A stretch of DNA of 35,760 bases from a virus (Duplodnaviria > Caudoviricetes): IMG/VR virus record IMGVR_UViG_3300020045_009020, positions 1 to 35,760 of that record, one strand, 5' to 3'. Shown here one piece after another: positions 11,246 to 27,507 of the stretch (the first letter of the stretch is position 1; each line of letters opens with the position of its first letter). Both the position numbers and the translations under genes were made by a program. The notes below the pieces were generated by a model. It did no database searches and was not told where the DNA came from. It was given only the letters and a program-made list of their open reading frames with translations.

Positions 11246-11246
11246 A

Positions 11247-11495: not shown

Positions 11496-11508
11496 GGGGC
11501 TACTAGAC

Positions 11509-11975: not shown

Positions 11976-11976
11976 C

Positions 11977-12306: not shown

Positions 12307-12308
12307 TC

Positions 12309-12539: not shown

Positions 12540-12641
12540 AATGTTAATAGACTTTGTAAGGCAATATAAATGGCGCTTTTCAGTCAATTACCGCTTCACA
12601 AAGATGAATATCAGGTACTTATTAAGGAAACTATTTAAAAG

Positions 12642-12965: not shown

Positions 12966-12967
12966 TA

Positions 12968-12996
12968 TTTACAAATAATCATTAATATTGTAAAAT
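12968..12996 (+). promoter_or_regulatory. sigma70-like promoter
   Basis: TTTACA-17-TAAAAT in intergenic DNA. Confidence 0.6.
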
Positions 12997-13005
12997 ATCT
13001 TTATT

Positions 13006-13110
13006 AAAATGAATCCGCAAAATTCAAACTACTATTCTAATATTCTTAATAACGAGCAGGATTTTAAAACATTTCTTTGCGGATTCGTTTTGCCTGCTCG
13101 TTCTATTTTT
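13006..13110 (+). promoter_or_regulatory. Structured leader 1 (hairpin plus terminator-like hairpin with complementary loops)
   Basis: TGAAT-CCGCAAA-ATTCA (13010-13026). AACGAGCAGG...CCTGCTCGTT (13051-13102) plus T tract encloses TTTGCGG (13076-13082). Confidence 0.65.
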
Positions 13111-13124
13111 ATTGGAGATAAAAT

Positions 13125-13430
13125 ATGAAGGAAATGTGGCGAGATATAAAAGGATATGAAGGGTTTTATCAGGTTAGTAATTTAGGCAGGATTAAGGGAC
13201 TTAGTAGATTAGTACAACATTCAGTTGGATTTTTAAAAAAACTGAAAGGACGAATTCGGAAACTTAATTTATTTGGAATGGAGAATGACCCTGTTATATG
13301 TTGGGCTAACATTTTTTTAGTTTTGTTGGTAGTAGGCTTAATATACTTATTCGGATGGGCTTTTTTCAGGGGTGTAGACATACTGCACGATTACGATCAG
13401 AAAGTTTATGAAAAAAATAGTTTGAAATAA
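13125..13430 (+). CDS. NUMOD4-domain protein lacking HNH, fused to a TM segment
   Basis: EMWRDIKGYEGFYQVSNLGRIK is the NUMOD4 motif; the C-terminal half is a hydrophobic helix. Confidence 0.75.
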   Translation: MKEMWRDIKGYEGFYQVSNLGRIKGLSRLVQHSVGFLKKLKGRIRKLNLFGMENDPVICWANIFLVLLVVGLIYLFGWAFFRGVDILHDYDQKVYEKNSLK

Positions 13431-13433
13431 TGC

Positions 13434-13462
13434 TTGACTTTATATAAAATCTTATGTATAAT
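13434..13462 (+). promoter_or_regulatory. Near-consensus sigma70 promoter (probable early promoter)
   Basis: TTGACT-17-TATAAT ahead of the accessory gene run. Confidence 0.8.
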
Positions 13463-13494
13463 TGTAATGAGAGGATATAAGGGGGGTGCTTAAA

Positions 13495-13632
13495 ATGCAA
13501 CTAACCAAAAAGACAAAGTTAGCATACAAAAACAATAGCTGGGTAGCCATTAGAGGCAACAAAATTAGAGAGCTAGACCAGTCGAGAGCATTTAAAATTG
13601 TATTGTTGGCAAAATATCATAAAGGATTATAA
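13495..13632 (+). CDS. Small basic protein (45 aa)
   Basis: Manually translated MQLTKKTKLAY...; G-rich RBS. Confidence 0.55.
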   Translation: MQLTKKTKLAYKNNSWVAIRGNKIRELDQSRAFKIVLLAKYHKGL

Positions 13633-13797
13633 ATGAAAATAACTAGCTGTAAAATTTGCAGTAAGGTATTCCGGCCCAAACATCCGGCGCATAAAATATG
13701 CTCAAAAAAGTGTTACAAACAATCAAGAGTATTAATCAATAGACGCTATGCACTAAAGGTTAAGAACGCCAAAGAACTTAAAAATATTGAAATATAA
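13633..13797 (+). CDS. Small zinc-finger protein (54 aa)
   Basis: Manually translated; CKICSKVF...KICSKKC. Confidence 0.65.
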   Translation: MKITSCKICSKVFRPKHPAHKICSKKCYKQSRVLINRRYALKVKNAKELKNIEI

Positions 13798-13808
13798 GTG
13801 AGGTAATC

Positions 13809-14018
13809 ATGTCATTATTTCAGTGGCTCGAAAACAGCGTCATAGATTTACAGCTTAAAATCGAAACTGAACGTGAAGGGAAAATTTACTTACTACCTGA
13901 GGAACAACGAAGAATTGACGCCGCAATACAGACTATAGTTGATATCCTCGAATCTTCCTGCAAAACTACCACTGCCGATCCTGATATAAAAAATGATGAA
14001 GCTCAACTTACGAGATAA
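13809..14018 (+). CDS. Hypothetical protein
   Basis: GAGG RBS; open frame. Confidence 0.6.
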   Translation: MSLFQWLENSVIDLQLKIETEREGKIYLLPEEQRRIDAAIQTIVDILESSCKTTTADPDIKNDEAQLTR

Positions 14019-14021
14019 CTG

Positions 14022-14123
14022 ATGACTCCTACAGAAACTAACGTGTTAATTATCTGTTGTATTATTATTGCTGTTTTATTTGTGGCAGCGGCCATAATAG
14101 ATAGTAAATTTTTGCATAAATGA
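14022..14123 (+). CDS. Single-TM micro-protein (33 aa)
   Basis: Manually translated MTPTETNVLIICCIIIAVLFVAAAIIDSKFLHK. Confidence 0.5.
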   Translation: MTPTETNVLIICCIIIAVLFVAAAIIDSKFLHK

Positions 14124-14135
14124 GGAGCGTAACCC

Positions 14136-14270
14136 ATGAAACTCTACCAGCTATTAATTTTAGCAATTCTACTCGGTATTTTAGTAGAAAAAGGCATTGT
14201 TAGAAATCAAAATCCAAACGGACAACGTAATATCAGTTACGAGGTTATTGAGTCAACGGGGGTAAGATGA
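14136..14270 (+). CDS. Small protein with hydrophobic N-terminus (44 aa)
   Basis: GAGGAGC RBS; ATGA overlap with the next gene. Confidence 0.5.
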   Translation: MKLYQLLILAILLGILVEKGIVRNQNPNGQRNISYEVIESTGVR

Positions 14271-14473
14271 CTGTTCCATTTGTAGCAATAAGCAATGACG
14301 AACTAGGCGAACCAATAGGCGAATATACAATATGCCCTAAATGCCATAAAAAGCACTTAGTTAGGTACGGAGATAGAATTATAGGCAGGAAAAAAGTTAA
14401 ATCTACCCTTTTAGGATATGTAAAATGTGGTAAACATTGCTATATGGTTGCTGTCAAGGGATTGAAGGTATGA
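14267..14473 (+). CDS. Small Cys-rich protein
   Basis: CPKC...H and C-terminal cysteines. Confidence 0.6.
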   Translation: MTVPFVAISNDELGEPIGEYTICPKCHKKHLVRYGDRIIGRKKVKSTLLGYVKCGKHCYMVAVKGLKV

Positions 14474-14616
14474 AAAATAAAAACTTAAAAATGACAGATG
14501 ATGATGCGTTAAGAATAATTATGTTTCTTATTAAATACTTAAATTGGGGTAAAAATAAGCAGTATACACTGATTGACTGGCATAAAATCAAAAAAGAACT
14601 TATGAGGATTAAATGA
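14470..14616 (+). CDS. Small hypothetical protein (48 aa)
   Basis: ATGA overlaps at both ends. Confidence 0.5.
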   Translation: MKNKNLKMTDDDALRIIMFLIKYLNWGKNKQYTLIDWHKIKKELMRIK

Positions 14617-14936
14617 ACAGGGTAATAAAAGACCTAAAAGACATACTTGAGATACATCATGTAGCTATACATTTAGCTAAACATACAGACCAATTTGTAG
14701 TCATTGACCCGAAACAAGTGGCTGAATATATTTATGGCGTTGGTTATAGAAAGACAAATGAGTATTGCAATTGGAAGCCTAATCCTGATTATGAAGATTG
14801 TGGCGGCGGATATGATACATCTTGTAAAAGGCAGTTTGTATCAGAATACACACTAGAAGAATGTGATGCTGTTTATTGCCAATTTTGCGGAAAGAAAATA
14901 AAGGTTGTGAAATCTAAAGGAGGTAGTAGTGAATAG
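14613..14936 (+). CDS. Hypothetical protein with C-terminal zinc ribbon
   Basis: YCNW...YDTSC...YCQFCGKKI. Confidence 0.65.
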   Translation: MNRVIKDLKDILEIHHVAIHLAKHTDQFVVIDPKQVAEYIYGVGYRKTNEYCNWKPNPDYEDCGGGYDTSCKRQFVSEYTLEECDAVYCQFCGKKIKVVKSKGGSSE

Positions 14937-15129
14937 AAATGATATAAGTCAAATGCTTTTAGCTGTAGTAAACTCAAAAAGTATGCCTTTTCACTGCAAG
15001 GATAGATTGGAAAAGGAACTATTGTGTATCTTGCACGAATGCGACGAAGCCGAACGCCAAAACAAAGGCGATTCAATAATAATACCAATTATGCCTACAC
15101 TTAAAGTATTGCTAGAAAAAGGAGAATAA
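14929..15129 (+). CDS. Hypothetical protein
   Basis: AGGAGG RBS; GTG start. Confidence 0.6.
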   Translation: MNRNDISQMLLAVVNSKSMPFHCKDRLEKELLCILHECDEAERQNKGDSIIIPIMPTLKVLLEKGE

Positions 15130-15131
15130 CT

Positions 15132-15428
15132 ATGAAACAGTATAAACTTAAAGTTGACTTTTTAGGATTTAAGAAAGATACACTATTAGAATATATCATA
15201 AATAAAAATTGGTATGTGATAAAAAATTTAGCCCTTGACGATATTGTTTTTGGCATTGATATATCACTCATAAAAGCAAATCCTGAAATATTCGAGCCTG
15301 TATTATGCCTTGAGGATGAACTTTACAGACTATTAACAGAATATGCTCGATTAAATATCCAAAATCAGGCTGTTTCGACAGTTGAATACCGCAACAAAAT
15401 AATCAAACTTTTTGAGGATAGGAAATGA
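15132..15428 (+). CDS. Hypothetical protein
   Basis: AGGAG RBS. Confidence 0.6.
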   Translation: MKQYKLKVDFLGFKKDTLLEYIINKNWYVIKNLALDDIVFGIDISLIKANPEIFEPVLCLEDELYRLLTEYARLNIQNQAVSTVEYRNKIIKLFEDRK

Positions 15429-15793
15429 AACTAACTGATATTGTTGTAAGCTTACCACTGGCAAAGAAGCTTAAGAGATTAAAGCTGGACTATCCCGAGA
15501 GTTTATATTATTGGGATAGCCATGCCACAGACAAGGTTACAGGGAAATACGGCATAACTTCCGACGGAGAGTATAAGGCCTATACTTCGGCGGAACTTTG
15601 GGAAATAATTCCAGATTCAATGTTTTTAGACGATAAAGAATGTCACTTTGGAATCACAAAAACACCTTACTGGTATGAGTGCGGGTATCGTGAAATAATT
15701 TATAGGTATCCTTACACAAGGCTTACTTTGGGCAAGACAGAAGCCGACGCACTTGCTGAAATGCTGATTTGGCTTAGTGGGGTGAGGAAATGA
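15425..15793 (+). CDS. Hypothetical phage protein
   Basis: VVSLPLAKKLKRL...AYTSAELWEIIP...TEADALAEMLIWL; ATGA overlaps. Confidence 0.65.
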   Translation: MKLTDIVVSLPLAKKLKRLKLDYPESLYYWDSHATDKVTGKYGITSDGEYKAYTSAELWEIIPDSMFLDDKECHFGITKTPYWYECGYREIIYRYPYTRLTLGKTEADALAEMLIWLSGVRK

Positions 15794-16404
15794 AAACCAT
15801 AATCATACTCTTATTATTTACCACAAACGCTTATGGGTTTGCACCGATGCTAGTAAGCCAGATGCCGAAAGAGGCACAGGATAAGTACATTACAAATGCA
15901 ATAATTGATGTGGTATGCAAGGAAGCAGGCGTTACATTTGCTGGGCGCATGGAACATATTGGAATTGATTATGTGTATATAACAGAGCCACAAACCAAAT
16001 CAACAATAATGATAAAGCTTGCAGATTTCAATGAGGAGTTTATCAAACATGCTATTGAGGCAAAGCGTAAACAATTTTCTGATTATAAAAAAGGTAATGG
16101 GAAACCTAAGCCACAAATGCCTATTGATTTAAAAGAATCACATAGGGCGCAGGTGGTTTGTGAGGAGTTGGGCCTACAATTCGTAATGTATTACAATGGT
16201 AAAGTATTTTTCAATGTTCCTGAAATTCCCACTACACTTTTTATGAATTTAGAGGGATTTAATGAACGTTCAGCAAGTTTGTATATCAATGAAATTAAGC
16301 TAGAACAGCATAGAATGTACCAGAAGGCAATGGATAATTTAAGGAAATTTAAAATACGTGACTTTAACGTTGAACAAGTTAAGGAATTGCTGGGGGCGAA
16401 ATAA
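15790..16404 (+). CDS. Signal-peptide protein with an internally duplicated domain of about 55 aa
   Basis: MKTIIILLLFTTNAYG; VVCKEAGVTF...FNE and VVCEELGLQF...FNE. Confidence 0.65.
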   Translation: MKTIIILLLFTTNAYGFAPMLVSQMPKEAQDKYITNAIIDVVCKEAGVTFAGRMEHIGIDYVYITEPQTKSTIMIKLADFNEEFIKHAIEAKRKQFSDYKKGNGKPKPQMPIDLKESHRAQVVCEELGLQFVMYYNGKVFFNVPEIPTTLFMNLEGFNERSASLYINEIKLEQHRMYQKAMDNLRKFKIRDFNVEQVKELLGAK

Positions 16405-16405
16405 A

Positions 16406-16633
16406 ATGAGTGCATGGGTAAAATGTTCGTGTATGGGTTCCAAACAAGTCAAAATGAAAAAATGGCGAGTATTGCATCTGAAACATAATCATTCATACTT
16501 TGAGTCACCAAAAGGCGGTGAACATCCCTCTAATTATTCTCAAATTATTTGTATTGCAAAAGGTTGTTTGGGAAATTTTAGGACGAAAGCAAATTATGTA
16601 TATAGTCTTAAAAGTGCAAAAATGAACGATTAA
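16406..16633 (+). CDS. Small Cys-rich protein
   Basis: Start moved to ATG 16406 behind GGGGGCGAAA; CSC...CIAKGC. Confidence 0.6.
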
Positions 16634-16649
16634 AATTATTGGGGGCGAA

Positions 16650-17243
16650 ATGACACCAGAAGAATTGAAAGAATGTTTAGCGTTGCATTTAGCATGGCTG
16701 AAAGATAACACAAAGGGGGAAAGAGCCAACTTGCGCTATGCCAGCTTGCGCTCTGCCGACTTGAGCTCTGCCGACTTGAGCTATGCCGACTTGAGCTATG
16801 CCAATTTGAGCTATGCCAACTTGAGCTCTGCCAACTTGAGCTGTGCCAACTTGAGCTGTGCCAACTTGAGCTCTGCCGACTTTAGCTATGCCAACTTGAG
16901 CTCTGCCGACTTGAGCTCTGCCGACTTGAGCTCTGCCGACTTGAGCTGTGCCAACTTGAGCTCTGCCGACTTTAGCTATGCCAACTTGAGCTCTGCCGAC
17001 TTGAGCTGTGCCAACTTGAGCTGTGCCGACTTGAGCAAACGCTACATACAAATATCATGTATTGGCAGTCGTAAAGATATGACAACGTATTGTTTTGATG
17101 ATGATATTATTTGGTGTGGATGTTATTCCGGCACTCTCGATGATTTTGAACAAAGAGTTAAAGAAACACACAAAGATAATCCACGTTATCTTAAAGAATA
17201 TCTTGAAGCGATAAAGCTATTTCGGGCATTAAAAGGAGCTTAA
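16650..17243 (+). CDS. Pentapeptide-repeat protein
   Basis: A[D/N]LS[S/Y/C] repeats, with HLAWL...GERANL N-cap and IGSR...IWCGC...F C-terminal domain. Confidence 0.95.
16725..17039 (+). repeat. 21 tandem 15-bp units, consensus GCC[A/G]ACTTGAGCT[A/C/G]T
   Basis: Directly visible tandem array of 315 bp. Confidence 0.95.
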
Positions 17244-17244
17244 A

Positions 17245-17496
17245 ATGAAAGAAGGCAATGTTCTTATGATTATGCTGGGTGTAATTATTGTTGGGATGTT
17301 GATTATGTTTTTCGGTTGCGCAACACCACAAAAGCCTAAAGATATGGGCTGGCAGGGAAACAGTATGGACGGTTGTATTGTGATGCAATTAGAGCGAGAG
17401 GACGGCACATTTATTGATAACTCACCAGAGGCAAAAGAAGCGGAAGAGAAGGCTAAACGTAAGGCTGAATTTATGAGGAAGAGCGGATTTCATTAA
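17245..17496 (+). CDS. Possible lipoprotein
   Basis: Hydrophobic leader ending in FFGC (lipobox-like). Confidence 0.55.
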   Translation: MKEGNVLMIMLGVIIVGMLIMFFGCATPQKPKDMGWQGNSMDGCIVMQLEREDGTFIDNSPEAKEAEEKAKRKAEFMRKSGFH

Positions 17497-17505
17497 ACTA
17501 AAACT

Positions 17506-17621
17506 GGACGGGTGGCGTAGTGGTTAACGCATGTGCGCTCTTAAAAGGTGGGACGCCGATTCCGGAACGGTGGAGCGATAAAACATACCACAAATCGTAG
17601 GTTCGATTCCTGCCCCGTCCA
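17506..17621 (+). ncRNA. tRNA-like RNA with greatly expanded anticodon arm (identity undetermined)
   Basis: Acceptor GGACGGG/CCCGTCC; D arm GCGT-AGTGGTTA-ACGC; T arm GTAGG-TTCGATT-CCTGC; TGTG/CACA encloses 53 nt. Confidence 0.75.
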
Positions 17622-17654
17622 GTAAATTTTTAAATAGGAAAAGAGGTTAATAAT

Positions 17655-17837
17655 ATGAAAACTAAATATCGAAACAAGAGAGAAATTGTTTTTAAAAAAG
17701 GCGAGGAAACGCATCTGGATGAAATCGAACATTCTCAATCAACGTTTATGGGATGTTTTGACCATAAGGATGATGATGAACTGTCTGATGAACTAATCTG
17801 TAATGCAAACTGTAAGATAACTTTGGAATGGGATTAA
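17655..17837 (+). CDS. Hypothetical protein
   Basis: GAGG RBS; open frame. Confidence 0.6.
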   Translation: MKTKYRNKREIVFKKGEETHLDEIEHSQSTFMGCFDHKDDDELSDELICNANCKITLEWD

Positions 17838-17902
17838 AAACCCGAGGTTGGTAATGAAAAAAACATACTGGGTAATTAAAGACATGGACAAAGGAGCTTA
17901 AA

Positions 17903-18052
17903 ATGAAAGAATTATTTGTGCAGTTAGTTGTAACACTTATCATGCTGTCAATATTTATAGTATTTCGTAAATTCTTCGGTTTTGAATACACTGTTTTATT
18001 TGCAATTGCATTTTCTTATGCAGGACTGATTGGAAGAATCAGGAAGATATAA
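17903..18052 (+). CDS. Small membrane protein (49 aa)
   Basis: Manually translated MKELFVQLVVTLIMLSIFIVF...; AAAGGAGC RBS. Confidence 0.55.
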   Translation: MKELFVQLVVTLIMLSIFIVFRKFFGFEYTVLFAIAFSYAGLIGRIRKI

Positions 18053-18068
18053 AAACAGGAGCGAAACG

Positions 18069-18185
18069 ATGGTATTAGTAACTTTGTCGTTGGCTATTAT
18101 TGGATTAGCAATTGCGATATTAGGCATTTATAAGACACTAGATGAAATAGCAAATAAACTTAAAGAAACAGGAGCGAAACAATGA
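18069..18185 (+). CDS. Single-TM micro-protein (38 aa)
   Basis: MVLVTLSLAIIGLAIAILGIYK...; ATGA overlap. Confidence 0.55.
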   Translation: MVLVTLSLAIIGLAIAILGIYKTLDEIANKLKETGAKQ

Positions 18186-18355
18186 TTGAAAGATTTGAGT
18201 TTATTGAAAAACAATGGAAATTACTTGAATGGTTATGGGTTAATAAATTTATATCAGAAAAAAAATTATTAGAAATTACAAGAGAACAAGAAATATGCCC
18301 CGAGTGGTGGGACATACCGTGCAATTGCCAAGAATGTATTAATTGTGAAAGATAA
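18182..18355 (+). CDS. Small Cys-rich protein (57 aa)
   Basis: ...ICPEWWDIPCNCQECINCER. Confidence 0.6.
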   Translation: MIERFEFIEKQWKLLEWLWVNKFISEKKLLEITREQEICPEWWDIPCNCQECINCER

Positions 18356-18374
18356 ATAAAAAAGGAGCGAAACA

Positions 18375-18476
18375 ATGAAAACTTGTGAAGATTGTAAATA
18401 CTATGAAACCTGTAAGTTACATGTAAATAATTTCCCACCAACTGAGTTCTGTGAAGAATTTGAGGAGAAACAATAA
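18375..18476 (+). CDS. Cys4 micro-protein (33 aa)
   Basis: MKTCEDCKYYETC...FCEEFEEKQ. Confidence 0.55.
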   Translation: MKTCEDCKYYETCKLHVNNFPPTEFCEEFEEKQ

Positions 18477-18613
18477 AGAAGAAAAAAAATCGGAACTTGA
18501 GGATTTGAAATACGACCCAAAAGAGAAAATATTTCCTGCCGATTTTCAGGAAGATATAAGAGAAAGATTCAACGAACTCATAGACTACATTAAAAGAAAG
18601 GAGCGAAAATAAC

Positions 18614-18907
18614 ATGATTACAATCAGCATTAAAAAAATTGTAGAGCATTACCTAACAGATGATTCCAAGAAGCGGACAGCAACAATATATTTCGTTGAT
18701 GATAAGTTTAAGAGCGTAACATATAAAACACGCTGCGATACATACGACCGCGCGGATTGGGAGTTTTTAGCGGATATTAATTGTCAAATAGCTAATATTG
18801 AGGAAGGGCTTCTTAAATATCCAGTACCAAAAATGCCTAAGCCAACAGCTTTTGATGAGGGCGGCAATCCTTTTAGATATAGCTCGAGTGAGGAGAAAGG
18901 GAAATGA
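18614..18907 (+). CDS. Hypothetical protein
   Basis: AAAGGAGC RBS. Confidence 0.65.
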   Translation: MITISIKKIVEHYLTDDSKKRTATIYFVDDKFKSVTYKTRCDTYDRADWEFLADINCQIANIEEGLLKYPVPKMPKPTAFDEGGNPFRYSSSEEKGK

Positions 18908-19104
18908 ACTATCTCTGTTCTCGTTGCGTAAATCGTAACGCCAATAAATTCTGCAAGGCTGGCAGGCCTAGAAATCAATATAAAAACTGCGCTCAGTTTG
19001 AGGCTGGGGTGCCGCATAACAGACTTGCGGGAAAAAGAATTAAGAAGTATGAGAACAATCCGATTATCAAGGAAATGCGGGCAGATATGGCAAAGTATAT
19101 ATGA
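18904..19104 (+). CDS. Small Cys4 protein
   Basis: CSRC...C...C; ATGA overlaps. Confidence 0.6.
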   Translation: MNYLCSRCVNRNANKFCKAGRPRNQYKNCAQFEAGVPHNRLAGKRIKKYENNPIIKEMRADMAKYI

Positions 19105-20465
19105 CATTATACAAACATCAAATTGAAGGTATAAAGCGAGCTATTGACAATAACGGAAAATATGCGTTTTTCTTTGATTGCGGAATAGGTAAGTGTTTAA
19201 CTGCGCTCAAAACATTCGAACAGTTAAAGCTTAAAGATCAGGGATTACGAATGTTAGTGTTTGCGCCAAAGTCTATTCTAATTACTTCTTGGATTTCAGA
19301 TATTAAGCAATATACTGATTTTACAGTAGGTATGCTCAAAGATACTAACAAAGGCGATATATTACTTATTAATTACGAGCTTGCTATTGCTAAAAGTGGT
19401 ATTAATAAGATTGCAAAGCTTATTTCTTCCGGGCGGTGGATGGCCTGCTGCGATGAATCCAGCCGCATGAAAAATTATGACTCACAAACTACCAAATTGT
19501 TAATATCGCTAAAATGGCAATTTCAGCATAGGCTCATACTCTCAGCCACACCTTGCCCGAATACTGAGCTTGAGTTGTGGGGTCAGATTGAGTTTATAAG
19601 TACCGTACTACCAAATAAGTTTACGCAATTTAGAAACCTATACTTCCAACTTTCGCGCGGGAATCAGGTAATGGTACCAAACGGAACCATGATGAATCGC
19701 TATACTATGGGCAATCTATACCGTACAGGGTGGAAGTACACCATAACGCCACAGAAACGCGAATTATTGATGAAAATGATCGCGTCATGTTGCTATTGGG
19801 TACGCAAAGAGGATGTTTTAGACTTGCCCGAGAAAATAGACGAGATCCGGCAAATAGAGCTATCCCGCGATGAGCTTAAGGCCTATAAGTCCATGAAAGA
19901 CGACTTAATCGCGGAAATAGGCGACGATATTGCCGTTGCAAGTGTTGCGCTTGCTAAGCTTATGAAGTTGCGCCAAATTACAAGCGGCTTCGCGTACAGC
20001 CTTGAAGGTAAGGCGCTACCTATTGGCAATAGCAAATTGAACGAACTACAAGCACTATTAGAAGAAATAGGCAATAAACAAGTAATAATATTCGCACAAT
20101 TTCGCTATGAGATTGAGCAGATCCAATCATTACTGCCCGGCAGCGTTACACTGTACTCACAAACTGACGATAAGGAAGCTTCCATTAACCAATTTAAGAA
20201 CGGCGAAGCTAAATATTTAATAGGACACCCGAAGTCAATGGCCCACGGATTAAACCTGCAATGCTGCCAGAACATGATATTTTATAGCCTCGATTATTCT
20301 TATGAGGCTTATGAGCAGGCGCGTAACCGCATTCACAGGATTGGGCAACAAGGATCTTGCACCTATTTTCACTTAATAGCTAAAGATACTATTGACGAAG
20401 CTATACTCAAAGTATTGCAGAAGAAAATTGACTTGCAAGAGGCGATAAGGGGAATAATTGAATGA
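19101..20465 (+). CDS. SNF2-family (SF2) helicase
   Basis: LYKHQ, DCGIGKC (motif I), DESS (II), LSATP (III), HGLNLQ (V), QARNRIHRIGQ (VI). Confidence 0.92.
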   Translation: MTLYKHQIEGIKRAIDNNGKYAFFFDCGIGKCLTALKTFEQLKLKDQGLRMLVFAPKSILITSWISDIKQYTDFTVGMLKDTNKGDILLINYELAIAKSGINKIAKLISSGRWMACCDESSRMKNYDSQTTKLLISLKWQFQHRLILSATPCPNTELELWGQIEFISTVLPNKFTQFRNLYFQLSRGNQVMVPNGTMMNRYTMGNLYRTGWKYTITPQKRELLMKMIASCCYWVRKEDVLDLPEKIDEIRQIELSRDELKAYKSMKDDLIAEIGDDIAVASVALAKLMKLRQITSGFAYSLEGKALPIGNSKLNELQALLEEIGNKQVIIFAQFRYEIEQIQSLLPGSVTLYSQTDDKEASINQFKNGEAKYLIGHPKSMAHGLNLQCCQNMIFYSLDYSYEAYEQARNRIHRIGQQGSCTYFHLIAKDTIDEAILKVLQKKIDLQEAIRGIIE

Positions 20466-21073
20466 AAATCTTAAATTTATATGCAGGTATCGGCGGTAAT
20501 CGTAAGCTGTGGGGCGATGAACATACTATTACCGCAGTTGAATACAAGCCTGAAATAGCGGCAATTTATAAAGATTTCTTCCCGAATGATAATGTAATTG
20601 TCGGCGATGCACATGATTTTCTCCTAAAAAATTATAAATCATACGATTTCATCTGGGCTTCGCCACCATGTCCGACACATAGCCATATATATAAAGAATT
20701 AGGAGTTGAAAGGCGCGGCTGGAAAGCATTTTATCCGGACATGAGTCTATATCAAGAAATAATTATGTTGAAGCATTATTTCAAAGGGAAGTGGTGTGTT
20801 GAAAATGTTGTTAGTTATTATGAGCCGCTTATTAAGCCGCATTATTTTGGTAGTCATTATTTCTGGTCAAATTTTCACATCAAACCTGTCGAAATTGAAT
20901 CAAGAGGTCACCATGTCGGAATTAAACATCTGCAAGAAATTAAGCAATTTGATTTGTCTAAATATAAAAGTATTGATAAAAGGAAATTACTGAGAAATTG
21001 TGTTGAGCCGGAATTAGGCTTACATATTCTAAACGAAAGCCAAAAAGATATATGTCCGGAGTTGTTTAAATGA
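20462..21073 (+). CDS. Compact C5-cytosine DNA methyltransferase
   Basis: LYAGIGG (motif I), SPPC (IV), ENV (VI). Confidence 0.9.
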   Translation: MKILNLYAGIGGNRKLWGDEHTITAVEYKPEIAAIYKDFFPNDNVIVGDAHDFLLKNYKSYDFIWASPPCPTHSHIYKELGVERRGWKAFYPDMSLYQEIIMLKHYFKGKWCVENVVSYYEPLIKPHYFGSHYFWSNFHIKPVEIESRGHHVGIKHLQEIKQFDLSKYKSIDKRKLLRNCVEPELGLHILNESQKDICPELFK

Positions 21074-21351
21074 GCCAGCCAGAAACGAAATTCAAGAATA
21101 AAGTATTGCGTATGATCAAGAAAGATTATCCTGGGGCTTTGGCTTTCAAGTTAAACGACGCAACACACTCGGGCTACCCGGATCTTCTCGTATTGTATAA
21201 ATCAAAATGTTATTTCTTCGAGCTTAAAGTTGCGCCAAATAAAACTTCCAAAATACAAGATTATTATATTTCCGCAATTCAATCTACCGGCAACTTTGCC
21301 GGCGTTGCTTATTCTACCGACGATATATCGCGAGTGTTAAATAACGCTTGA
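21070..21351 (+). CDS. VRR-NUC domain nuclease
   Basis: E..F...SGYPDL...FFELK...Q PD-(D/E)xK pattern. Confidence 0.85.
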   Translation: MSQPETKFKNKVLRMIKKDYPGALAFKLNDATHSGYPDLLVLYKSKCYFFELKVAPNKTSKIQDYYISAIQSTGNFAGVAYSTDDISRVLNNA

Positions 21352-21377
21352 CTATGCAGAATAAGAAAAGATATAAT
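21348..21377 (+). promoter_or_regulatory. sigma70-like promoter
   Basis: TTGACT-18-TATAAT. Confidence 0.7.
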
Positions 21378-21404
21378 ATGTATGTAAACATTACAAATAC
21401 ATAC

Positions 21405-21478
21405 GATCGGGTAAGCGATCTATCTTCATTATATAGGGCGTGTTGCTTCTTACCAGGCGACATCGCCCTAGTTTTTTT
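21405..21478 (+). promoter_or_regulatory. Structured leader 2 (kissing-loop hairpin plus terminator)
   Basis: GATCG-GGTAAG-CGATC (21405-21420). TAGGGCG-TGTTGCTT-CTTACC-AGGCGACA-T-CGCCCTA followed by GTTTTTTT (21434-21478). Confidence 0.75.
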
Positions 21479-21491
21479 ATGAGGAGATAGT

Positions 21492-22112
21492 ATGACAACT
21501 AAAAAATATTATAGAGAAAATATTGATAAAATAAAAAAGTATAGCCATCTGTATTATCAGAAATATAAGAAATTGATTTATGCCAAAAATAAAGAATATA
21601 TGATAGCTTATAGAAAACGCAATAATGCTAAATTAATACAATACGCAAAGGAATACAGAATAAATAATGCAGATGCAATTAAAAAGAAAAAGAAAATATA
21701 CAATATTAAAAATAAAAATCATATTAATGAACATAAAAAGCACATTATTTATAATGGCAATAGACTGAAATTACTCAAAAAATACAATTATACCTGCCAA
21801 AAATGCAATCAATCATTTAAAGATTCTAAATTAGATATACACCATATTGATCGATTTGGAAGTAGGAATCCGGTTGCGTTGCAAAATAATAATGTAAATA
21901 ATCTTATGCTCTTGTGTGAACAATGTCATCACAGATTGCATAGTACCGGCGAATCGAATGGCAATGCAAAACTAACAAATAAAAAGGTTACAGAAATAAG
22001 AAAACTCTATAATAAAAAAATATCTTATAGAATTATTACAAAACAATACAATATATCTCAGGCTGTTTTTTACAAAGTTATCAACCATATTAGTTGGAAA
22101 CATGTTATATAA
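21492..22112 (+). CDS. HNH endonuclease (homing-endonuclease-like)
   Basis: CQKC...DIHHID...NNVNNLMLLCEQCHHRLH; C-terminal GESNGNAKLT...EIR HTH-like tail; Lys/Tyr-rich N-terminus; very AT-rich. Confidence 0.9.
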   Translation: MTTKKYYRENIDKIKKYSHLYYQKYKKLIYAKNKEYMIAYRKRNNAKLIQYAKEYRINNADAIKKKKKIYNIKNKNHINEHKKHIIYNGNRLKLLKKYNYTCQKCNQSFKDSKLDIHHIDRFGSRNPVALQNNNVNNLMLLCEQCHHRLHSTGESNGNAKLTNKKVTEIRKLYNKKISYRIITKQYNISQAVFYKVINHISWKHVI

Positions 22113-22124
22113 ACTAGGGGGTGA

Positions 22125-22532
22125 TTGAAAATGATGAATGACATAAGTGAAAAAGATTTAGTGTCACGACTTAAAAGTTTCAGGAACGAGCGAAAAGAAT
22201 TAGAAATTAAGCTCGATGAAATTAAAAGAGCAGAAGCGGAAGCTGAATCTAATTTACTCGAACATCTTGAAGCCATCAACGCTACCGCTACAGCAAAGTA
22301 CGATAATGTGGGGTATGCCGTTGCTATGAAACCGCGATGCTTCGCAACTTGTGTCGAAAGTGAATTTGATAACCTAAAAAATTATCTAGCAAATGAAGGC
22401 AGGCTTGACCTTGTAAAAGAAAAGGTTATGCCTTCAACCCTTTCGGCTTATGTTTCGGAACTTATTGCGGCCGGCAAGCCTATACCGGCTTGTATTAGTT
22501 ATTATCTCAAAACCAGTATCAAGGTTTATTGA
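22125..22532 (+). CDS. Replication-module hypothetical protein (coiled-coil N-terminus)
   Basis: Open frame directly before the SSB-like gene; exact start uncertain. Confidence 0.65.
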   Translation: MKMMNDISEKDLVSRLKSFRNERKELEIKLDEIKRAEAEAESNLLEHLEAINATATAKYDNVGYAVAMKPRCFATCVESEFDNLKNYLANEGRLDLVKEKVMPSTLSAYVSELIAAGKPIPACISYYLKTSIKVY

Positions 22533-22563
22533 TACGAAATTTAAACCGAAAAGGAGCTACACA

Positions 22564-23256
22564 ATGAAAAAACAAGAAGAGCAGAAGCTAGCAGTTAAGC
22601 AGGAAACAGCAATAGCAGCACCGGGTCGCATTATCAGAGGCTTCGAAGCTGAACTCGACCAGAATGATTTAATGATACCGCGCGCTAAGCTCATCCAAAA
22701 GATGAGCGATGAGATAAACGACGGCCGGCGCGAAGGCGAGATTATCAATAGCCTCACAAAGGAAATACTACCGGCTACCTTCATACCGATTTTCGTCTAT
22801 AAGCAGGTTATACGCTTTGACGAGAACAAGAAAATGTTATGGCAAACTACCGATATGAAAGATCCGCGAGTATTGGCTGAGGCTAGCTTTGGCAAGGACG
22901 GCGAAGCCCCTTTAGCACATACTTATCTCAATTTTTTCTCGGTATTTGACGGGCTGCCTATGCCAATTATAATTGGCTTTAGCAAGTCGAGTTATAAAAC
23001 CGGCAAGCAATTATTATCGCTTGCCAAATTTACCGGAGATTCTATGTATGGGCGCAAGTACACACTCGGCTCTAAAAAAGTATCTGGCGATAAAGGCCAG
23101 TATGCCATTTTCACTATCAATCCGGCTGGTATAGTTACCGAAGATGAGTACAAGAACGCTGATAAATTGTGGGAAACATACTCCAACAAGGCAGCAGATC
23201 TCAAGGTACACGACGAAACAGTTGCAGAATCAGAAGTACCGGACAGCTGGAAATAA
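22564..23256 (+). CDS. Probable phage ssDNA-binding/annealing protein
   Basis: Start moved to ATG 22564 (AAAGGAGC RBS); DLMIPRAKLIQKMS, SKSSYKTGK, acidic-aromatic C-tail (ESEVPDSWK). Confidence 0.55.
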   Translation: MKKQEEQKLAVKQETAIAAPGRIIRGFEAELDQNDLMIPRAKLIQKMSDEINDGRREGEIINSLTKEILPATFIPIFVYKQVIRFDENKKMLWQTTDMKDPRVLAEASFGKDGEAPLAHTYLNFFSVFDGLPMPIIIGFSKSSYKTGKQLLSLAKFTGDSMYGRKYTLGSKKVSGDKGQYAIFTINPAGIVTEDEYKNADKLWETYSNKAADLKVHDETVAESEVPDSWK

Positions 23257-23265
23257 CTAACAATT

Positions 23266-23310
23266 CATGCCGCTCGAGTTTGCTAGTCACTTCTCGGGCG
23301 GTATGTTTTT
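23266..23310 (+). terminator. Rho-independent terminator
   Basis: CATGCCGCTCGAG...CTCGGGCGGTATG followed by TTTTT. Confidence 0.8.
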
Positions 23311-23325
23311 GCCTGAAAGGAATAT

Positions 23326-23841
23326 ATGAAAATGGATATAGTAGCAGGTAGTAAAAATGATGAATTTTATACACCAGAATACGCAGTTATACCTATTACT
23401 AATTATCTAAGACCAAATTCGACAATTTGGTGTCCTTTCGATACCCAGGATAGTAATTTTGTGAAAGTTTTAACAAAACTAGGACACAAAGTAATTGCAA
23501 CGCATATTCATGATGGTCAAGACTTTTTTAATCATAGCGAAATTTGCGATTATATAATATCTAATCCACCCTATAGTTTAAAGTATGAAGTTTTTGAAAG
23601 ATTATACGCACTAAATAAGCCATTCGCAATGTTAGTTGGAGTAGTGGGATTATTCGAAAGTCAAAAAAGATTTTATCTATTCAAGGAACATTTTTTTGAG
23701 ATTATGTATTTGAATAAAAGAATATCTTATTTTAGAGATTACTTTGAACAAAAACCATCTATTAATCCTCCGTTTAGTAGTGTTTATGTTTGTTGTGGAG
23801 TCTTACCTGAAAAGATTATTTTTGAAGAAGTATATAAATGA
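23326..23841 (+). CDS. Small amino (N6-adenine) DNA methyltransferase
   Basis: DEFYTP, IWCPFD, GQDFF, ISNPPYS. Confidence 0.85.
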   Translation: MKMDIVAGSKNDEFYTPEYAVIPITNYLRPNSTIWCPFDTQDSNFVKVLTKLGHKVIATHIHDGQDFFNHSEICDYIISNPPYSLKYEVFERLYALNKPFAMLVGVVGLFESQKRFYLFKEHFFEIMYLNKRISYFRDYFEQKPSINPPFSSVYVCCGVLPEKIIFEEVYK

Positions 23842-23972
23842 AAAATCTATTCCCAATTACGCTGATCGTTTTAGATCTATGCGCCTCTATTGTTTACTTG
23901 TGTTATGGCGACTGGCGCCGCGCCATTTACTGGCTAGCGGCTAGTATTTTAACCTTGACAGTTACGCTGTAA
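23838..23972 (+). CDS. Two-TM micro-protein (44 aa)
   Basis: Manually translated MKNLFPITLIVLDLCASIVYLCYGDWRRAIYWLAASILTLTVTL; start overlaps the upstream stop (ATGA). Confidence 0.6.
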   Translation: MKNLFPITLIVLDLCASIVYLCYGDWRRAIYWLAASILTLTVTL

Positions 23973-23983
23973 AGCTATACAAT
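23955..23983 (+). promoter_or_regulatory. sigma70-like promoter
   Basis: TTGACA-17-TACAAT. Confidence 0.8.
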
Positions 23984-24024
23984 ATCGCAACTCCAGTACA
24001 AGGCTATTTTATGGATAACAATAC

Positions 24025-24100
24025 AAAGCTTATTGCGCAAGTTTTTTTAATTTATAGAGGATGCTGTCCGTGGCGCAATCACGGCGGCATCCTTAATTTT
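24025..24100 (+). promoter_or_regulatory. Structured leader 3 (kissing-loop hairpin pair)
   Basis: AAAGCTT-ATTGCGC-AAGTTTT (24025-24045). AGGATGCTG-T-CCGTG-GCGCAAT-CACGG-CGGCATCCT (24058-24093) followed by TAATTTT. Confidence 0.75.
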
Positions 24101-24114
24101 ATCATAAAGGAACA

Positions 24115-25572
24115 ATGCCTATGAATGCTTTAAGTCTTGAAATGAAGATCAGGGAATTGGACTCGCAAGAAAATCTCGATATTACTAATGAGATAGGACT
24201 GGCCGAGCTAATCGTACAACTGTATGCAAATGAAATTTTATTTGTACCGGTGCTCGGATGGCTAGTTTGGAATGGTAAACAATGGGAAATTGATAATGAT
24301 AATGTAGTTGTGCTGAAAGTAATTGAAATGTGTCAACAATTAAAAAAAATCATTATCAGTAAAAATGAAAAGAAAATGCTGAAATTCATACCGGATATAT
24401 CACAGAATAGAAAAATCAATTCTATATTAAAGCTAGCCGGAGTTATGCCGCCGATTGTATCCAAACAAAACACACTCGATAGCACGCAAACAGATTATCT
24501 ATTTAACTGTCAAAATGGTACTTTTAATCTCAACACAATGAAACTCCAGCCACACAATCCGACAGACTATATTACCAAAATTTCTAATGTTACCTACAAT
24601 GAAACCGCGAAGCCTGATAAGTTTATTAAATTCCTTAATACTACCTTTTGCAATAATCAAGATACTATTAGTTATATCCAGCGATACTTTGGATATACGC
24701 TCACAGCTTGCATTAATGAGCAAAGTTTAGCTTTGTTTTGCGGAACCGGAGCGAATGGGAAAACACAACTACTTGAGATTATATCGCTCATAATGAAAGA
24801 TTACTATCAAAAAATTGAGAGCAATACATTCCTCGACGATAGAGGCAACAATAAATCACTTGCGCTTGCTAATGCTAAAGGCGCTCGAATGATTTACGCT
24901 GGCGAGTTTAACGGCAAGAAAATTGACGAAGCGTTTGTCAAAACTATTACCGGGGGCGAAGAAGTGTCAGCTCGGCATCATTTTAAAAACTTTTTCCAAT
25001 ATTATCCGACCTATAAAATCTTTATGACTTCAAATGATAAACCCCGAGTATCAGGTAACGATCATGGCTTTTGGCGCCGATTTAAAAGTATTGAGTTTAA
25101 AAATGTTATTCCAACGAGTGATCAGATTAAGGATTTTGGACGGTTCCTGTTCAACGAAGAAGGCTCGGCAATATTTAACTGGGTACTATCTGGATATATG
25201 GCATGGATTTCACAAGGGCTCGGGTCATGTAAGGAAGTTGATGACGCTACACAGGATTATAAAGAGGAAAGCGATATATTACATGATTTCTTTCAAGATA
25301 AAATTGAGGTTGATAAGTTCTATTGTGTTAAGTCCAGCGCGCTGCATAAAGCTATAAATGACTACCGCAAGGCGGCCGGACTCAATGCTATTTCTACGCA
25401 ACGCATGGCTCATTATTTAATCAATAAAGGGTTCGATAAAAAGCAGAAAACACAAGGGGCAGAAAAGGGCTCAAAATACTGGCATGGATTAGGCTTAAAA
25501 GACGCAATAGAACACGCTGACCAGAACGATTTATTAAGTGATATTTTGAATCATGACACAGAACCATTTTAG
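24115..25572 (+). CDS. P4/D5-family SF3 helicase (D5_N plus ATPase), no primase domain
   Basis: GWLVWNGKQW, LFNCQNG, GTGANGKT (Walker A), VKTITGGE, GFWRR. Start may be ATG 24121. Confidence 0.9.
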   Translation: MPMNALSLEMKIRELDSQENLDITNEIGLAELIVQLYANEILFVPVLGWLVWNGKQWEIDNDNVVVLKVIEMCQQLKKIIISKNEKKMLKFIPDISQNRKINSILKLAGVMPPIVSKQNTLDSTQTDYLFNCQNGTFNLNTMKLQPHNPTDYITKISNVTYNETAKPDKFIKFLNTTFCNNQDTISYIQRYFGYTLTACINEQSLALFCGTGANGKTQLLEIISLIMKDYYQKIESNTFLDDRGNNKSLALANAKGARMIYAGEFNGKKIDEAFVKTITGGEEVSARHHFKNFFQYYPTYKIFMTSNDKPRVSGNDHGFWRRFKSIEFKNVIPTSDQIKDFGRFLFNEEGSAIFNWVLSGYMAWISQGLGSCKEVDDATQDYKEESDILHDFFQDKIEVDKFYCVKSSALHKAINDYRKAAGLNAISTQRMAHYLINKGFDKKQKTQGAEKGSKYWHGLGLKDAIEHADQNDLLSDILNHDTEPF

Positions 25573-25588
25573 GACTATAATATAGAGT

Positions 25589-25827
25589 AAAAGTAGCGGA
25601 GTAAGTTATCCACAAAGTTATCCACAAGTGAAAATATTGGAAAATGTCAAAAAAAGTAGCAGATGAGGTTAAAAGTAGCAGAGTAGTAGCAGATAAAACA
25701 CATTGATTTATCAACAAAGTAGCAGAGTAGAGGAGTTTTTATATACTAATAGGTTAAATAAAAATATATATATTTTATATATATGTAAAGGAAGACAAAA
25801 CCTATCTGCTACCAAAAGTCTGCTACT
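25589..25827. other. Probable replication origin: iterons, two DnaA boxes and an AT-rich element
   Basis: Five direct AGTAGC[A/G]GA copies, two inverted TCTGCTAC (25805, 25819), TTATCCACA at 25606 and 25618, AT palindrome at 25761-25776. Confidence 0.8.
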
Positions 25828-25851
25828 GAGAAGAAATACTAAGGGGGTAAA

Positions 25852-26481
25852 ATGAAAGAAATTTACAAATTAATGGCCAAGCATTCAGGTTGGTGGTTCA
25901 AGTGTGAAAAGTCGGGCTGTTTTACCGCAGCCGAATTGGCAGAATTAATCGAAATTGAAATGAGTGATGCCGATTTGGCAGAAAAGGAAAAACAATCGGA
26001 GTGGCGGGCTCAAGCTTTGGTTGCTGAATTTAAAAAAGAAATGGAATACCAGCAATGGATGAGAGATAGTAGGATTGAATACTTGTTGAGTGTAAAAAAT
26101 AAATTAAACCAACAGGTAAAAAAAATGTTTGGAATGTCTAAACAGTCAGCAAATTTAGCAAGTTATCGTGATATGATAGCTAACAAACAAATAATTATTG
26201 CTAAAATTATGAGTAATATTGAAAATCTAAGATCTTGGGACGATAATAAAATATCTGATATTGATATTGAAAATGCTAGGAACTATTCGCTTGATAAGTT
26301 ATTGGATATTAAAAAGAATTTTGCATTATGTATTAATCATCAGGATACTAAGCCGAGTATGTACTGTAAGAAGAATTTTGCTCATTGTTTCGTATGTGGA
26401 TGGACTGGAAGCGCAATAGATGTGGTTATGAAGCTGGAAGGATTAGACTTTGTGGCGGCAGTTAAGAGGTTAAATGAGTAA
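25852..26481 (+). CDS. Protein with C-terminal CHC2 (DnaG-type) zinc finger
   Basis: CINHQDTKPSM...AHCFVCGWTGSAIDVVMKLEGLDFVAAVKRL. Confidence 0.85.
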   Translation: MKEIYKLMAKHSGWWFKCEKSGCFTAAELAELIEIEMSDADLAEKEKQSEWRAQALVAEFKKEMEYQQWMRDSRIEYLLSVKNKLNQQVKKMFGMSKQSANLASYRDMIANKQIIIAKIMSNIENLRSWDDNKISDIDIENARNYSLDKLLDIKKNFALCINHQDTKPSMYCKKNFAHCFVCGWTGSAIDVVMKLEGLDFVAAVKRLNE

Positions 26482-26698
26482 TGAATTTGTTGGGATGTTA
26501 AACAAGTATTTGGTAGGCAAGGCATGGCTAGCAGCCCGTCCACCATGCAAGGATCTTGAAGATAAGTTTTACGCGAAAGTCAAAGCGCCCTTGGCCGCGA
26601 TAATTGAAACAGACGAGGAAATGTTATTGATAATGCGTATTTGTGATAAGTTTAATGCGGTTAAGGTTATGTGGAAAGAAAAGAAGGCTAAGGCTTGA
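26474..26698 (+). CDS. Hypothetical protein
   Basis: GAGG RBS; overlaps the upstream gene. Confidence 0.6.
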   Translation: MSNEFVGMLNKYLVGKAWLAARPPCKDLEDKFYAKVKAPLAAIIETDEEMLLIMRICDKFNAVKVMWKEKKAKA

Positions 26699-26723
26699 CA
26701 TTTGGAAATATATATTATAGCAT
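26695..26723 (+). promoter_or_regulatory. Possible sigma70 promoter
   Basis: TTGACA-17-TAGCAT in an AT-rich gap. Confidence 0.5.
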
Positions 26724-26793
26724 ATATAATAATACTATAAATGAGTATATAATATAATGCTGGCTATGTAATTCTATGCTAAAAGGGGTTAAA

Positions 26794-26961
26794 ATGCTTA
26801 AATGCGAGTTTTGTGGAAAGGATTTTTTAGAAAGGAATTTAGAAAATGGAAATTCTAAAAAATATTGTAATAGTAAATGTAGAAGTTATGAAAATATGCT
26901 TCATTGGTTATTAAAGAAAAAAAATAAAGGGCAACAAATATGCGAAACAAAAAGCGTATAA
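26794..26961 (+). CDS. Small zinc-finger protein
   Basis: CEFCGKDF...KYCNSKCR; start moved behind the AAGGGG RBS. Confidence 0.65.
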   Translation: MLKCEFCGKDFLERNLENGNSKKYCNSKCRSYENMLHWLLKKKNKGQQICETKSV

Positions 26962-27092
26962 AGCAGAAAACAGAGCAAAAATGGGTATGTGATACTTGCA
27001 ATAACACTTTTACGGCTTATACGCCAATTACCGGAGCGCATTGTGTAAAGTGTAACAAACCTATGCGATTAAACCTTGGTATAATTGTGTAA
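26940..27092 (+). CDS. Small zinc-ribbon protein (50 aa)
   Basis: Manually translated ...WVCDTCNNTF...HCVKCNKPM. Confidence 0.6.
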   Translation: MRNKKRIKQKTEQKWVCDTCNNTFTAYTPITGAHCVKCNKPMRLNLGIIV

Positions 27093-27108
27093 AATTAAAA
27101 AATAAAGC

Positions 27109-27137
27109 TTGACTTTTGGCGCAATATTTTATATAAT
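27109..27137 (+). promoter_or_regulatory. sigma70 promoter for the packaging/late operon
   Basis: TTGACT-17-TATAAT. Confidence 0.8.
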
Positions 27138-27147
27138 CCGTATATAA

Positions 27148-27295
27148 TGCAAAATAAATCTTTGCAATTTACAATAAAACTCTCAAGCGGCAGGTTACCG
27201 CGTGGGAGTTTTTTTCATTATAGCGGGGCTAAACCGAATCGGATAACTAAATATCATACAAGCGATTTATGCGTTTATGCCCTGCGCTTTTTTTT
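27148..27295 (+). promoter_or_regulatory. Structured leader 4 (hairpin plus two terminator-like hairpins)
   Basis: TGCAAA-ATAAATC-TTTGCA; AAAACTCTCA-AGCGG-CAGGTTA-CCGCG-TGGGAGTTTT-TTT; GCGGGGC-TAAAC...GTTTA-T-GCCCTGC followed by a T8 tract. Confidence 0.65.
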
Positions 27296-27487
27296 ATGAC
27301 AATACTACAATACGCAGCTTTTCTTTCAGTAACTTTAATATTCCTCGTGCTTGCTTTACGCGCGTGTTACTTTCTTTTTGTTTGCAAAGCCGATCCGATA
27401 AAATCTATTCTTCCGGACTTTGCGCTTAAAATGTTTAAGATAGATACTGATAAAAAATTTCATAAAACTATCGAAGTTTCGAGCTAA
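27296..27487 (+). CDS. Small membrane protein
   Basis: MTILQYAAFLSVTLIFLVLAL...; ATG 27296 preferred as start. Confidence 0.5.
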   Translation: MTILQYAAFLSVTLIFLVLALRACYFLFVCKADPIKSILPDFALKMFKIDTDKKFHKTIEVSS

Positions 27488-27507
27488 TTCAGTACAAGGA
27501 ATATTCA

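Follow-up and report, generated by a model that had tools for sequence, protein, structure and literature searches.

A 35,760-nucleotide (nt) virus record (IMG/VR record IMGVR_UViG_3300020045_009020; Duplodnaviria, Caudoviricetes), analysed over its whole length and here called the window, contains three promoter-proximal leaders, E1 (12968), E2 (21348), and E3 (23955), which are real members of an uncatalogued structured-RNA leader design. In this design, a promoter-like site is followed by a small 5' hairpin and then by a terminator-like hairpin, the loop of which is complementary to that of the first. An earlier note on the same DNA had united these leaders with a fourth one, E4 (27109), in one family of four equivalent kissing-loop leaders. 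Its four promoters and four complementary pairs were all recovered in place; the family did not survive in that form, as E1 is built on a long duplex at its 5' end, E2 and E3 on loop-loop pairs, and the membership of E4 is doubtful.

Pairing in the Leaders of the Window

The pairing of E2 and E3 is purely loop to loop: both loops are 6 or 7 nt long and fully complementary, with linkers of 13 nt in E2 and 11 nt in E3. The pairing of E1, formerly described as a 7-nt kiss, extends to 17 base pairs (bp) and runs from the estimated start site to the terminator loop. The predicted energy of this duplex (-22.4 to -22.9 kcal/mol) was reached by 0 of 2000 shuffles and 0 of 28 swaps; the first hairpin of E1 is marginal (about -1 kcal/mol). 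An inverted repeat, TTTACAA-N13-TTGTAAA, has also been observed across the E1 promoter (12968-12994), where it might be an operator.

The design was formalized in a promoter-blind descriptor, which requires a perfect small hairpin, a stable hairpin no more than 75 nt away, and complementarity between the apex of the latter and 6 or more nt in the loop of the former. On both strands of the window this descriptor gives four matches, namely E1, E2, and E3, all with a U-rich tail, and a tail-less one on the minus strand. In 200 block-wise dinucleotide shuffles, matches with a U-tail averaged 0.08 with a maximum of 2, and three were reached in 0/200. When the hairpins are held fixed, the chance of a full-loop match is about 1e-3 for E1, 2e-3 for E2, and 9e-5 for E3. 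The shared hairpin geometry that had been claimed for all four leaders holds for E1-E3 and fails for E4. The loop codes do not cross-pair in the window (off-diagonal loop pairs of at most 4 nt), and the same has been found within the related genomes G006 and G008 (L and G numbers are working labels). The orthogonality asserted in the earlier note is therefore correct as to the absence of cross-pairing within a genome, although drift in a pairing that acts only in cis may explain it. Elsewhere the design is scarce: 295 other phage loci (3.05 Mb) yielded 287 raw matches, of which 39 had a U-tail and one, a weak match, also a promoter, and no promoter-linked match was present in the D5 and terminase samples (160 loci).

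Related Leaders in Other Phages

Kissing leaders of the E2/E3 kind have been found in G001, the nearest related phage, a record whose terminase is 78% identical to that of the window. The same descriptor locates two pure kissing leaders in this record, L483 and L484. L483 aligns with E2 over its full length (score 57.5, reached by 0/5000 shuffles; none of 42 background units exceeded 34.5); all 20 counted pairs are kept, and three of the six kiss pairs are changed on both sides. L484 lies after a putative lysis gene (a reading of the map of open reading frames, ORFs) and before an SNF2-like gene, which is the position of E1 in the window. Compared with E3, two of its seven kiss pairs and eight of 19 pairs in total are changed on both sides; overall likeness is within background (42.5, versus up to 52 for background units), so that homology rests on the layout and the loop scaffold only. 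Another example is L611, the only one of 42 sampled promoter-terminator-Shine-Dalgarno (SD) units with the kiss design, compared with two of 1722 swapped pairs, in a scan that covered 12 of 64 parts; L497 is a further case, obtained by a free-loop-middle pattern scan. No convincing member was present in G009, a complete relative, or in three prophage regions. The kissing leader design is thus real but uncommon. Among side observations, L253 (5848-5986) has a perfect promoter, a 6-bp hairpin, a terminator-like stem, and a possible 6-nt partner, and is a candidate of the E2/E3 type. In addition, an AGUA/GAA internal loop, which we take to be loop-E-like, is kept in the terminator stems of the three L473 (G006) leaders and of L497 (202-252) and does not occur in the leaders of the window.

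Of long-duplex leaders of the E1 kind, 14 are known outside the window, in related phages and often before HNH genes. They were first noticed by eye in L193 and L194, where gp33 is immediately preceded by a promoter, a 5' segment, and a terminator whose loop is complementary to that segment. At least 10 complementary nt were present in seven of 44 strong units versus eight of 1844 swaps, and the pairing is directional, because at least 9 nt complementary to the loop occur upstream at nine of 182 strong terminators and downstream at none of 182 (p=0.0018). A fresh set of 80 HNH loci comprised 72 distinct upstream regions and five terminators near the start codon, and the long duplex was present in all three terminator leaders with a perfect promoter. 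In a blind census of 176 near-consensus promoters, 11 outside the window had a proximal terminator, and in five of these 11 a duplex begins 0-6 nt from the estimated start. G006 and G008 carry three long-duplex copies each; the three copies of G006 share their flanks, yet all 10 aligned duplex pairs are changed on both sides. Compensatory changes in homologues, the absence of which the earlier note had listed among its refuting conditions, are found in both kinds of leader. Of nine downstream proteins scanned, four pass the Pfam cut-off for HNH/NUMOD and two more have weak HNH matches. Most gp33-like genes lack a leader, the interval being coding in most of 65 distinct regions, and no common alignment of eight members jointly was obtained. 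Most members have a clear U-run behind a GC-rich stem.

A second signal is a short reading frame within the leader. In 13 of 21 leaders an ATG near the start opens a frame that runs through the terminator (shuffle mean 3.0; 0/3000 reach 13), whereas among background units such a frame is present in 14 of 42 (p=0.03). The estimated start itself coincides with an ATG in 9/21 members versus 2/42 background units (p=0.0004) and 12/114 of all sampled promoters. In E1, E3, E4, L250c, and G008a the stop codon of the leader ORF overlaps the next ATG.

The Doubtful Leader E4

The membership of E4 in the leader design is doubtful. Its duplex is weak (-10.5 kcal/mol) and was matched by 37 of 2000 shuffles and one of 28 swaps; a strong terminator-like hairpin, without a complementary partner in the leader, stands between its two loops, and the promoter-blind descriptor misses it. 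The sole support comes from L194, which also has an intervening terminator. By analogy, E4 more probably represents a late promoter that carries tandem terminators and would depend on a protein antiterminator. In this respect, it resembles the lambdoid pR' late promoters, which also have a -10 repeat just after the start and terminators before the packaging genes, as far as the available part of the source describes them (PMC5001585); this likeness concerns E4 only. The window yielded no Q-like gene, and the small ORFs upstream of E4 have no such Pfam match.

Comparison with Known Systems

The closest precedent is the guanidine-IV (mepA/GGAM-1) riboswitch with its variant Gd4v, which likewise has a 5' hairpin and a linker, followed by a terminator with a loop that pairs with that of the hairpin (PMC7736828; bioRxiv 10.1101/2020.10.21.349134; PMC11611296; PMC9788692; these and the other papers cited here are represented by the available parts of their texts). 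In this riboswitch, the full terminator cannot form while its loop is paired with the P1 loop, and the length of the linker is critical (bioRxiv 10.1101/2020.10.21.349134; PMC11611296). Pairing between the P1 loop and the loop of an intrinsic terminator is found in E1-E3 by sequence and predicted folding. However, in the leaders described here the loop letters are unconserved, each copy has its own code, and the pairing spans 6-22 bp; downstream lie HNH nuclease, SNF2 and D5 helicase, and gp33-like genes instead of guanidine exporters (mepA/sugE-type), and no ligand is evident. On conserved loops and gene context the leaders fall outside guanidine-IV while, by analogy, probably working like it.

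The earlier note had drawn its analogy from IncI/IncB plasmids. In ColIb-P9, the rep pseudoknot is likewise initiated by a loop, and the predicted leader ORFs of E1, E3, and E4, which end where the next gene starts, recall its leader peptide; that system differs in controlling translation without a terminator, through a loop that pairs beside the SD sequence and is blocked by an antisense RNA (PMC4705826). Here, unlike the SD-adjacent pairing of IncI/IncB, the partner strand lies in the apex of a terminator-like hairpin, and an antisense promoter is not consistent (best scores of 6-10/12 in 15 members and 8-9 in E1-E4). The leader-peptide part of the analogy has nevertheless gained some ground from the ORF counts. 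The note had also invoked phage P4. IsrK of Gifsy-1 and the P4 CI RNA resemble the present leaders in that a terminator comes immediately after a phage promoter and that parts of the leader are complementary to one another, but they need a short RNA in trans and have their target beyond the terminator, whereas the partner in the present leaders is part of the terminator loop itself (PMC4825925). Another related case is that of the T-even homing endonucleases, where a promoter of their own and an RNA structure precede a mobile nuclease gene; these are single SD-hiding hairpins, or terminators inside the gene, and no loop pairing is described in the available text (PMC2988022).

Absence from Rfam, which the earlier note had set as a check, was borne out at the thresholds run. 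With Rfam 15, the window gave tRNA only and no guanidine-IV match (that Rfam 15 contains this model was not confirmed, and the leaders were not compared with its consensus). Six member loci gave no match at the gathering score, and six more loci at E<=1 gave a tRNA and a sub-threshold TEG147 match on the terminator stem of L497, which is produced by the AGUA/GAA internal loop. In the literature, the available texts contain no description of this leader design in phages; the supplements of PMC5737381 and PMC10690425, which were not covered, could hold a matching motif. The words kissing, terminator, and HNH do not occur in the text of the Minerva preprint.

Proposed Mechanism and Alternative Explanations

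We favor a reading in which pairing formed during transcription keeps the terminators of E1-E3 from closing, so that the polymerase reads into the gene; from sequence and folding models, we regard it as having about an even chance of being correct. The 5' hairpin would fold first, and the terminator loop, on leaving the polymerase, would pair with loop 1 in a kiss of 6-7 bp in E2 and E3, which in E1 would zip into 17 bp. Read-through would then follow, because a linker of insufficient length, or a closed loop under too much constraint, would prevent completion of the lower terminator stem. If the 5' segment were occupied at that moment, the terminator would close. The likeliest occupant would be a ribosome engaged on the 5'-terminal leader ORF, followed by terminated leader RNA that acts in trans. 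In 15 members there was no signal that read-through transcripts sequester the 5' segment from upstream. Since the leader family has no conserved loop letters, a small-molecule ligand would not be expected. With the polymerase placed at the U-tract, the duplex fold is favored over the 5'-blocked fold by 7.7-18.8 kcal/mol in all six long-duplex leaders tested. By rough length estimates, the 11-nt linker of E3 reaches about 65 Å compared with the 81 Å of the full stem, and the upper stem alone fits; E2 is borderline (77 Å of reach versus 73 Å needed). Structures adjoining the RNA exit channel have been reported, in the available part of the source, to suppress termination (bioRxiv 10.64898/2026.06.17.733018). 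A wider proposal, possible but tentative, is that phages and mobile HNH cassettes share a ligand-free, recodable switch like guanidine-IV, in which 5' bases pair with the terminator loop, a ribosome on a leaderless 5' start codon or the terminated RNA of the cassette decides the outcome, and each cassette keeps a private code.

Several points weigh against antitermination by pairing. The kiss energies of E2 and E3 (-7.5 and -8.7 kcal/mol) fall far below those of their own terminators (-21.5 and -24.2 kcal/mol), and the pseudoknot is not scorable with ViennaRNA. The U-tract of E3 is poor (TTAATTTT), so that E3 may act on translation instead. Since members were collected by searching for complementarity, their pairing is partly selected; the free-loop-middle pattern scan gave two complementary cases in 67 with about one expected, one of them being the seed, which is not significant, and the pure kiss design was present in none of 47 distinct NUMOD4 upstream regions. 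Start sites are estimates from the promoter consensus throughout. The leader ORFs were recognized as a signal post hoc, and eight of 21 members lack one, among them E2, whose start holds just ATG-TAA, and the G001 counterpart of E2.

The leader ORFs could equally mean that pairing locks translation. According to this explanation, which we consider unlikely though not lightly dismissed, the pairing masks the beginning of the leader ORF as soon as the loop has been transcribed, and the leader must be translated for the hairpin to open and for ribosomes to reach the coupled gene; translation would be brief for each transcript, and pairing would lower expression and not raise it. The stop-start overlaps noted above agree with this, as does the capacity of the linker to pair with the SD region in E1-E3, and precedents exist in the leader peptide and pseudoknot of ColIb-P9 (PMC4705826) and in the SD-hiding hairpins of T4 homing endonucleases (PMC2988022). 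The members without the ORF, and the U-runs that follow GC-rich stems in most leaders, speak against it. A role in trans is rather improbable: the terminated leader RNA would pair with new transcripts of its own cassette, as in the IsrK and P4 CI systems, and separate codes would insulate the cassettes. Codes that do not cross-pair in the window, G006, or G008 would suit such feedback, as would the first terminators of E4 and L194, at which termination would yield the 5' segment as a separate small RNA, and IsrK is itself the terminated form of its own leader that acts in trans on the read-through form. However, pairing in cis accounts for all the data, and drift alone yields differing codes.

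It is also improbable, and slightly more so, that the product is the point, the pairing serving to fold or protect a stable small RNA or to mark a site for a phage antiterminator protein, with no switching of the terminator by the pairing itself. The perfect -10 repeat and tandem terminators of E4, as in lambdoid late promoters, agree with this, but no letters are conserved family-wide for a protein or target to read, and members directly precede an SD sequence or start codon. Finally, chance, or inverted repeats acting at the DNA level in AT-rich intergenic regions, is a very improbable explanation of the set as a whole. Chance is plausible for E4 alone, given its shuffles, and unlikely for E1-E3 in view of the shuffles, the fixed-hairpin odds, the scans of other loci, and the compensatory changes; DNA-level repeats are at odds with the tolerance of G-U pairs and with the location of the partner in a hairpin apex.

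Genomic Context

The window, a 35.8-kb record with a GC content of 38%, includes terminase, portal, capsid, and tail genes. One module has the order SNF2, nuclease, gp33-like, gp34-like, and D5, and relatives of the SNF2-to-D5 module were found at 35-53%; nine of the 15 relatives from genome assemblies lie in Omnitrophota contigs. The D5 protein as sole query gave no close relatives among viral contigs, and its best protein relatives do not exceed 38%. The nearest terminase relative, L001, has the structural genes alone in common with the window and no DNA match to 10000-27600. Coordinates are listed in Table 1.

Table 1. Leader elements of the window and the genes that adjoin them (aa, amino acids).
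Feature	Positions	Strand	Basis
E1 promoter-like site, TTTACA-17-TAAAAT	12968..12996	+	10/12 consensus matches
E1 5' segment: weak hairpin 13010-13026, loop CCGCAAA; 5' duplex strand 13005-13021	13005..13026	+	folding, descriptor scan
E1 terminator-like hairpin 13051-13102, partner strand 13076-13092, then U-rich tail	13051..13111	+	-19.1 kcal/mol
E1 leader ORF, 39 aa, no SD, predicted; stop overlaps ATG of next gene (ATGA)	13009..13128	+	ORF analysis
Gene behind E1: NUMOD4 motif (aa 3-49), then hydrophobic tail	13125..13430	+	domain search
E2 promoter-like site, TTGACT-18-TATAAT; -35 box overlaps stop codon of upstream nuclease gene	21348..21377	+	11/12 consensus
E2 first hairpin, 5 bp, loop GGTAAG (21410-21415)	21405..21420	+	folding, descriptor scan
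E2 terminator-like hairpin 21434-21470, loop CTTACC (21449-21454), 7-U run, SD directly 3'	21434..21478	+	-21.5 kcal/mol; aligns with G001 leader L483
HNH endonuclease gene, C-terminal helix-turn-helix-like part	21492..22112	+	domain search
Pam3 gp33-like and gp34-like genes, downstream of E2	22125..23256	+	Pfam PF23984, PF23977
E3 promoter-like site, TTGACA-17-TACAAT	23955..23983	+	11/12 consensus
E3 first hairpin, 7 bp, loop ATTGCGC (24032-24038)	24025..24045	+	folding, descriptor scan
E3 terminator-like hairpin 24057-24094, loop GCGCAAT (24073-24079), weak U-tract	24057..24100	+	-24.2 kcal/mol; compare G001 L484
E3 leader ORF, 37 aa, weak SD, predicted; stop overlaps second ATG (24121) of D5-type gene	24011..24124	+	ORF analysis
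D5/P4-type primase-helicase ORF	24115..25572	+	D5_N and DUF5906 domains
E4 promoter-like site, TTGACT-17-TATAAT; perfect TATAAT repeat 27143-27148, 11 nt downstream of -10 box	27109..27148	+	likeness to sigma-dependent pause site (PMC5001585, available part)
E4 first hairpin, loop ATAAATC (27154-27160)	27148..27166	+	folding
E4 intervening strong terminator-like hairpin 27176-27212, loop CAGGTTA, no complementary partner in leader	27176..27216	+	folding
E4 second terminator-like hairpin with GATTTAT (27264-27270); weak, doubtful partner	27223..27295	+	folding, shuffles
E4 leader ORF, 50 aa, no SD, predicted; stop overlaps ATG at 27296	27147..27299	+	ORF analysis
63-aa hydrophobic ORF (conserved in G001), then small terminase-like gene (27508-27756)	27296..27756	+	ORF map, domain search

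The gene labels of the earlier note were partly upheld. The gene behind E1 does carry the NUMOD4 motif, but the domain search gave no HNH match in it, and from its sequence it is likely a truncated NUMOD4-HNH gene. The supposed single-stranded DNA-binding protein (SSB) is the Pam3 gp34-like protein, whose SSB role is putative; the helicase is the D5-type ORF, and the first gene after E4 is the hydrophobic ORF ahead of the terminase. At E2, promoter, leader, and HNH gene together make up an inserted segment where the nuclease gene adjoins the gp33-like gene; in most relatives this junction is coding. In L250 the same junction is occupied by a leader with an HNH gene, and there (4560-4722) the first codons of the gp33-like gene are duplicated just 5' of the promoter-leader-HNH cassette, which suggests that the cassette was inserted at the gene start. 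The E2 HNH protein had no match among annotated phages, and its relatives are too diverse for a locus search.

Other observations concern neighboring regions. Within 24115-26481 the D5-type ORF has no primase-domain match and a CHC2 zinc finger is encoded in a separate downstream ORF, whereas L248 and like relatives have one long ORF. Just 3' of the D5-type gene (25588-25730) there are two copies of TTATCCACA (25606 and 25618), 12 nt apart, which we take to be the DnaA-box consensus, together with several AAAGTAGC-type repeats; this region is likely a replication origin. A tRNA-like gene with a long insertion in the anticodon arm (17506-17621; Rfam 49.2 bits) was not called by ARAGORN, and an ORF made of 15-nt repeats (16650-17243), presumably pentapeptide-repeat-like, has PHROG matches with no known function. 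In L299, L313, L346, L351, and L372, about 190 nt before a NUMOD4 match, another leader design was seen by eye, with loops complementary to one or two repeats adjacent to the start codon, an arrangement reminiscent of c4-type control.

Biological Significance

The leaders represent a recurring cis-RNA design before phage nuclease and replication genes. Sequence-based catalogues would miss this design, since it conserves nothing except the pairing and otherwise resembles an ordinary terminator. The authors of the guanidine-IV work predicted, in the available part of their text, that more RNAs using terminator loops exist. The design makes it testable whether loop pairing alone antiterminates without a ligand or protein and, if this is true, leaders of 90-110 nt would be ready-made, natural orthogonal attenuator parts.

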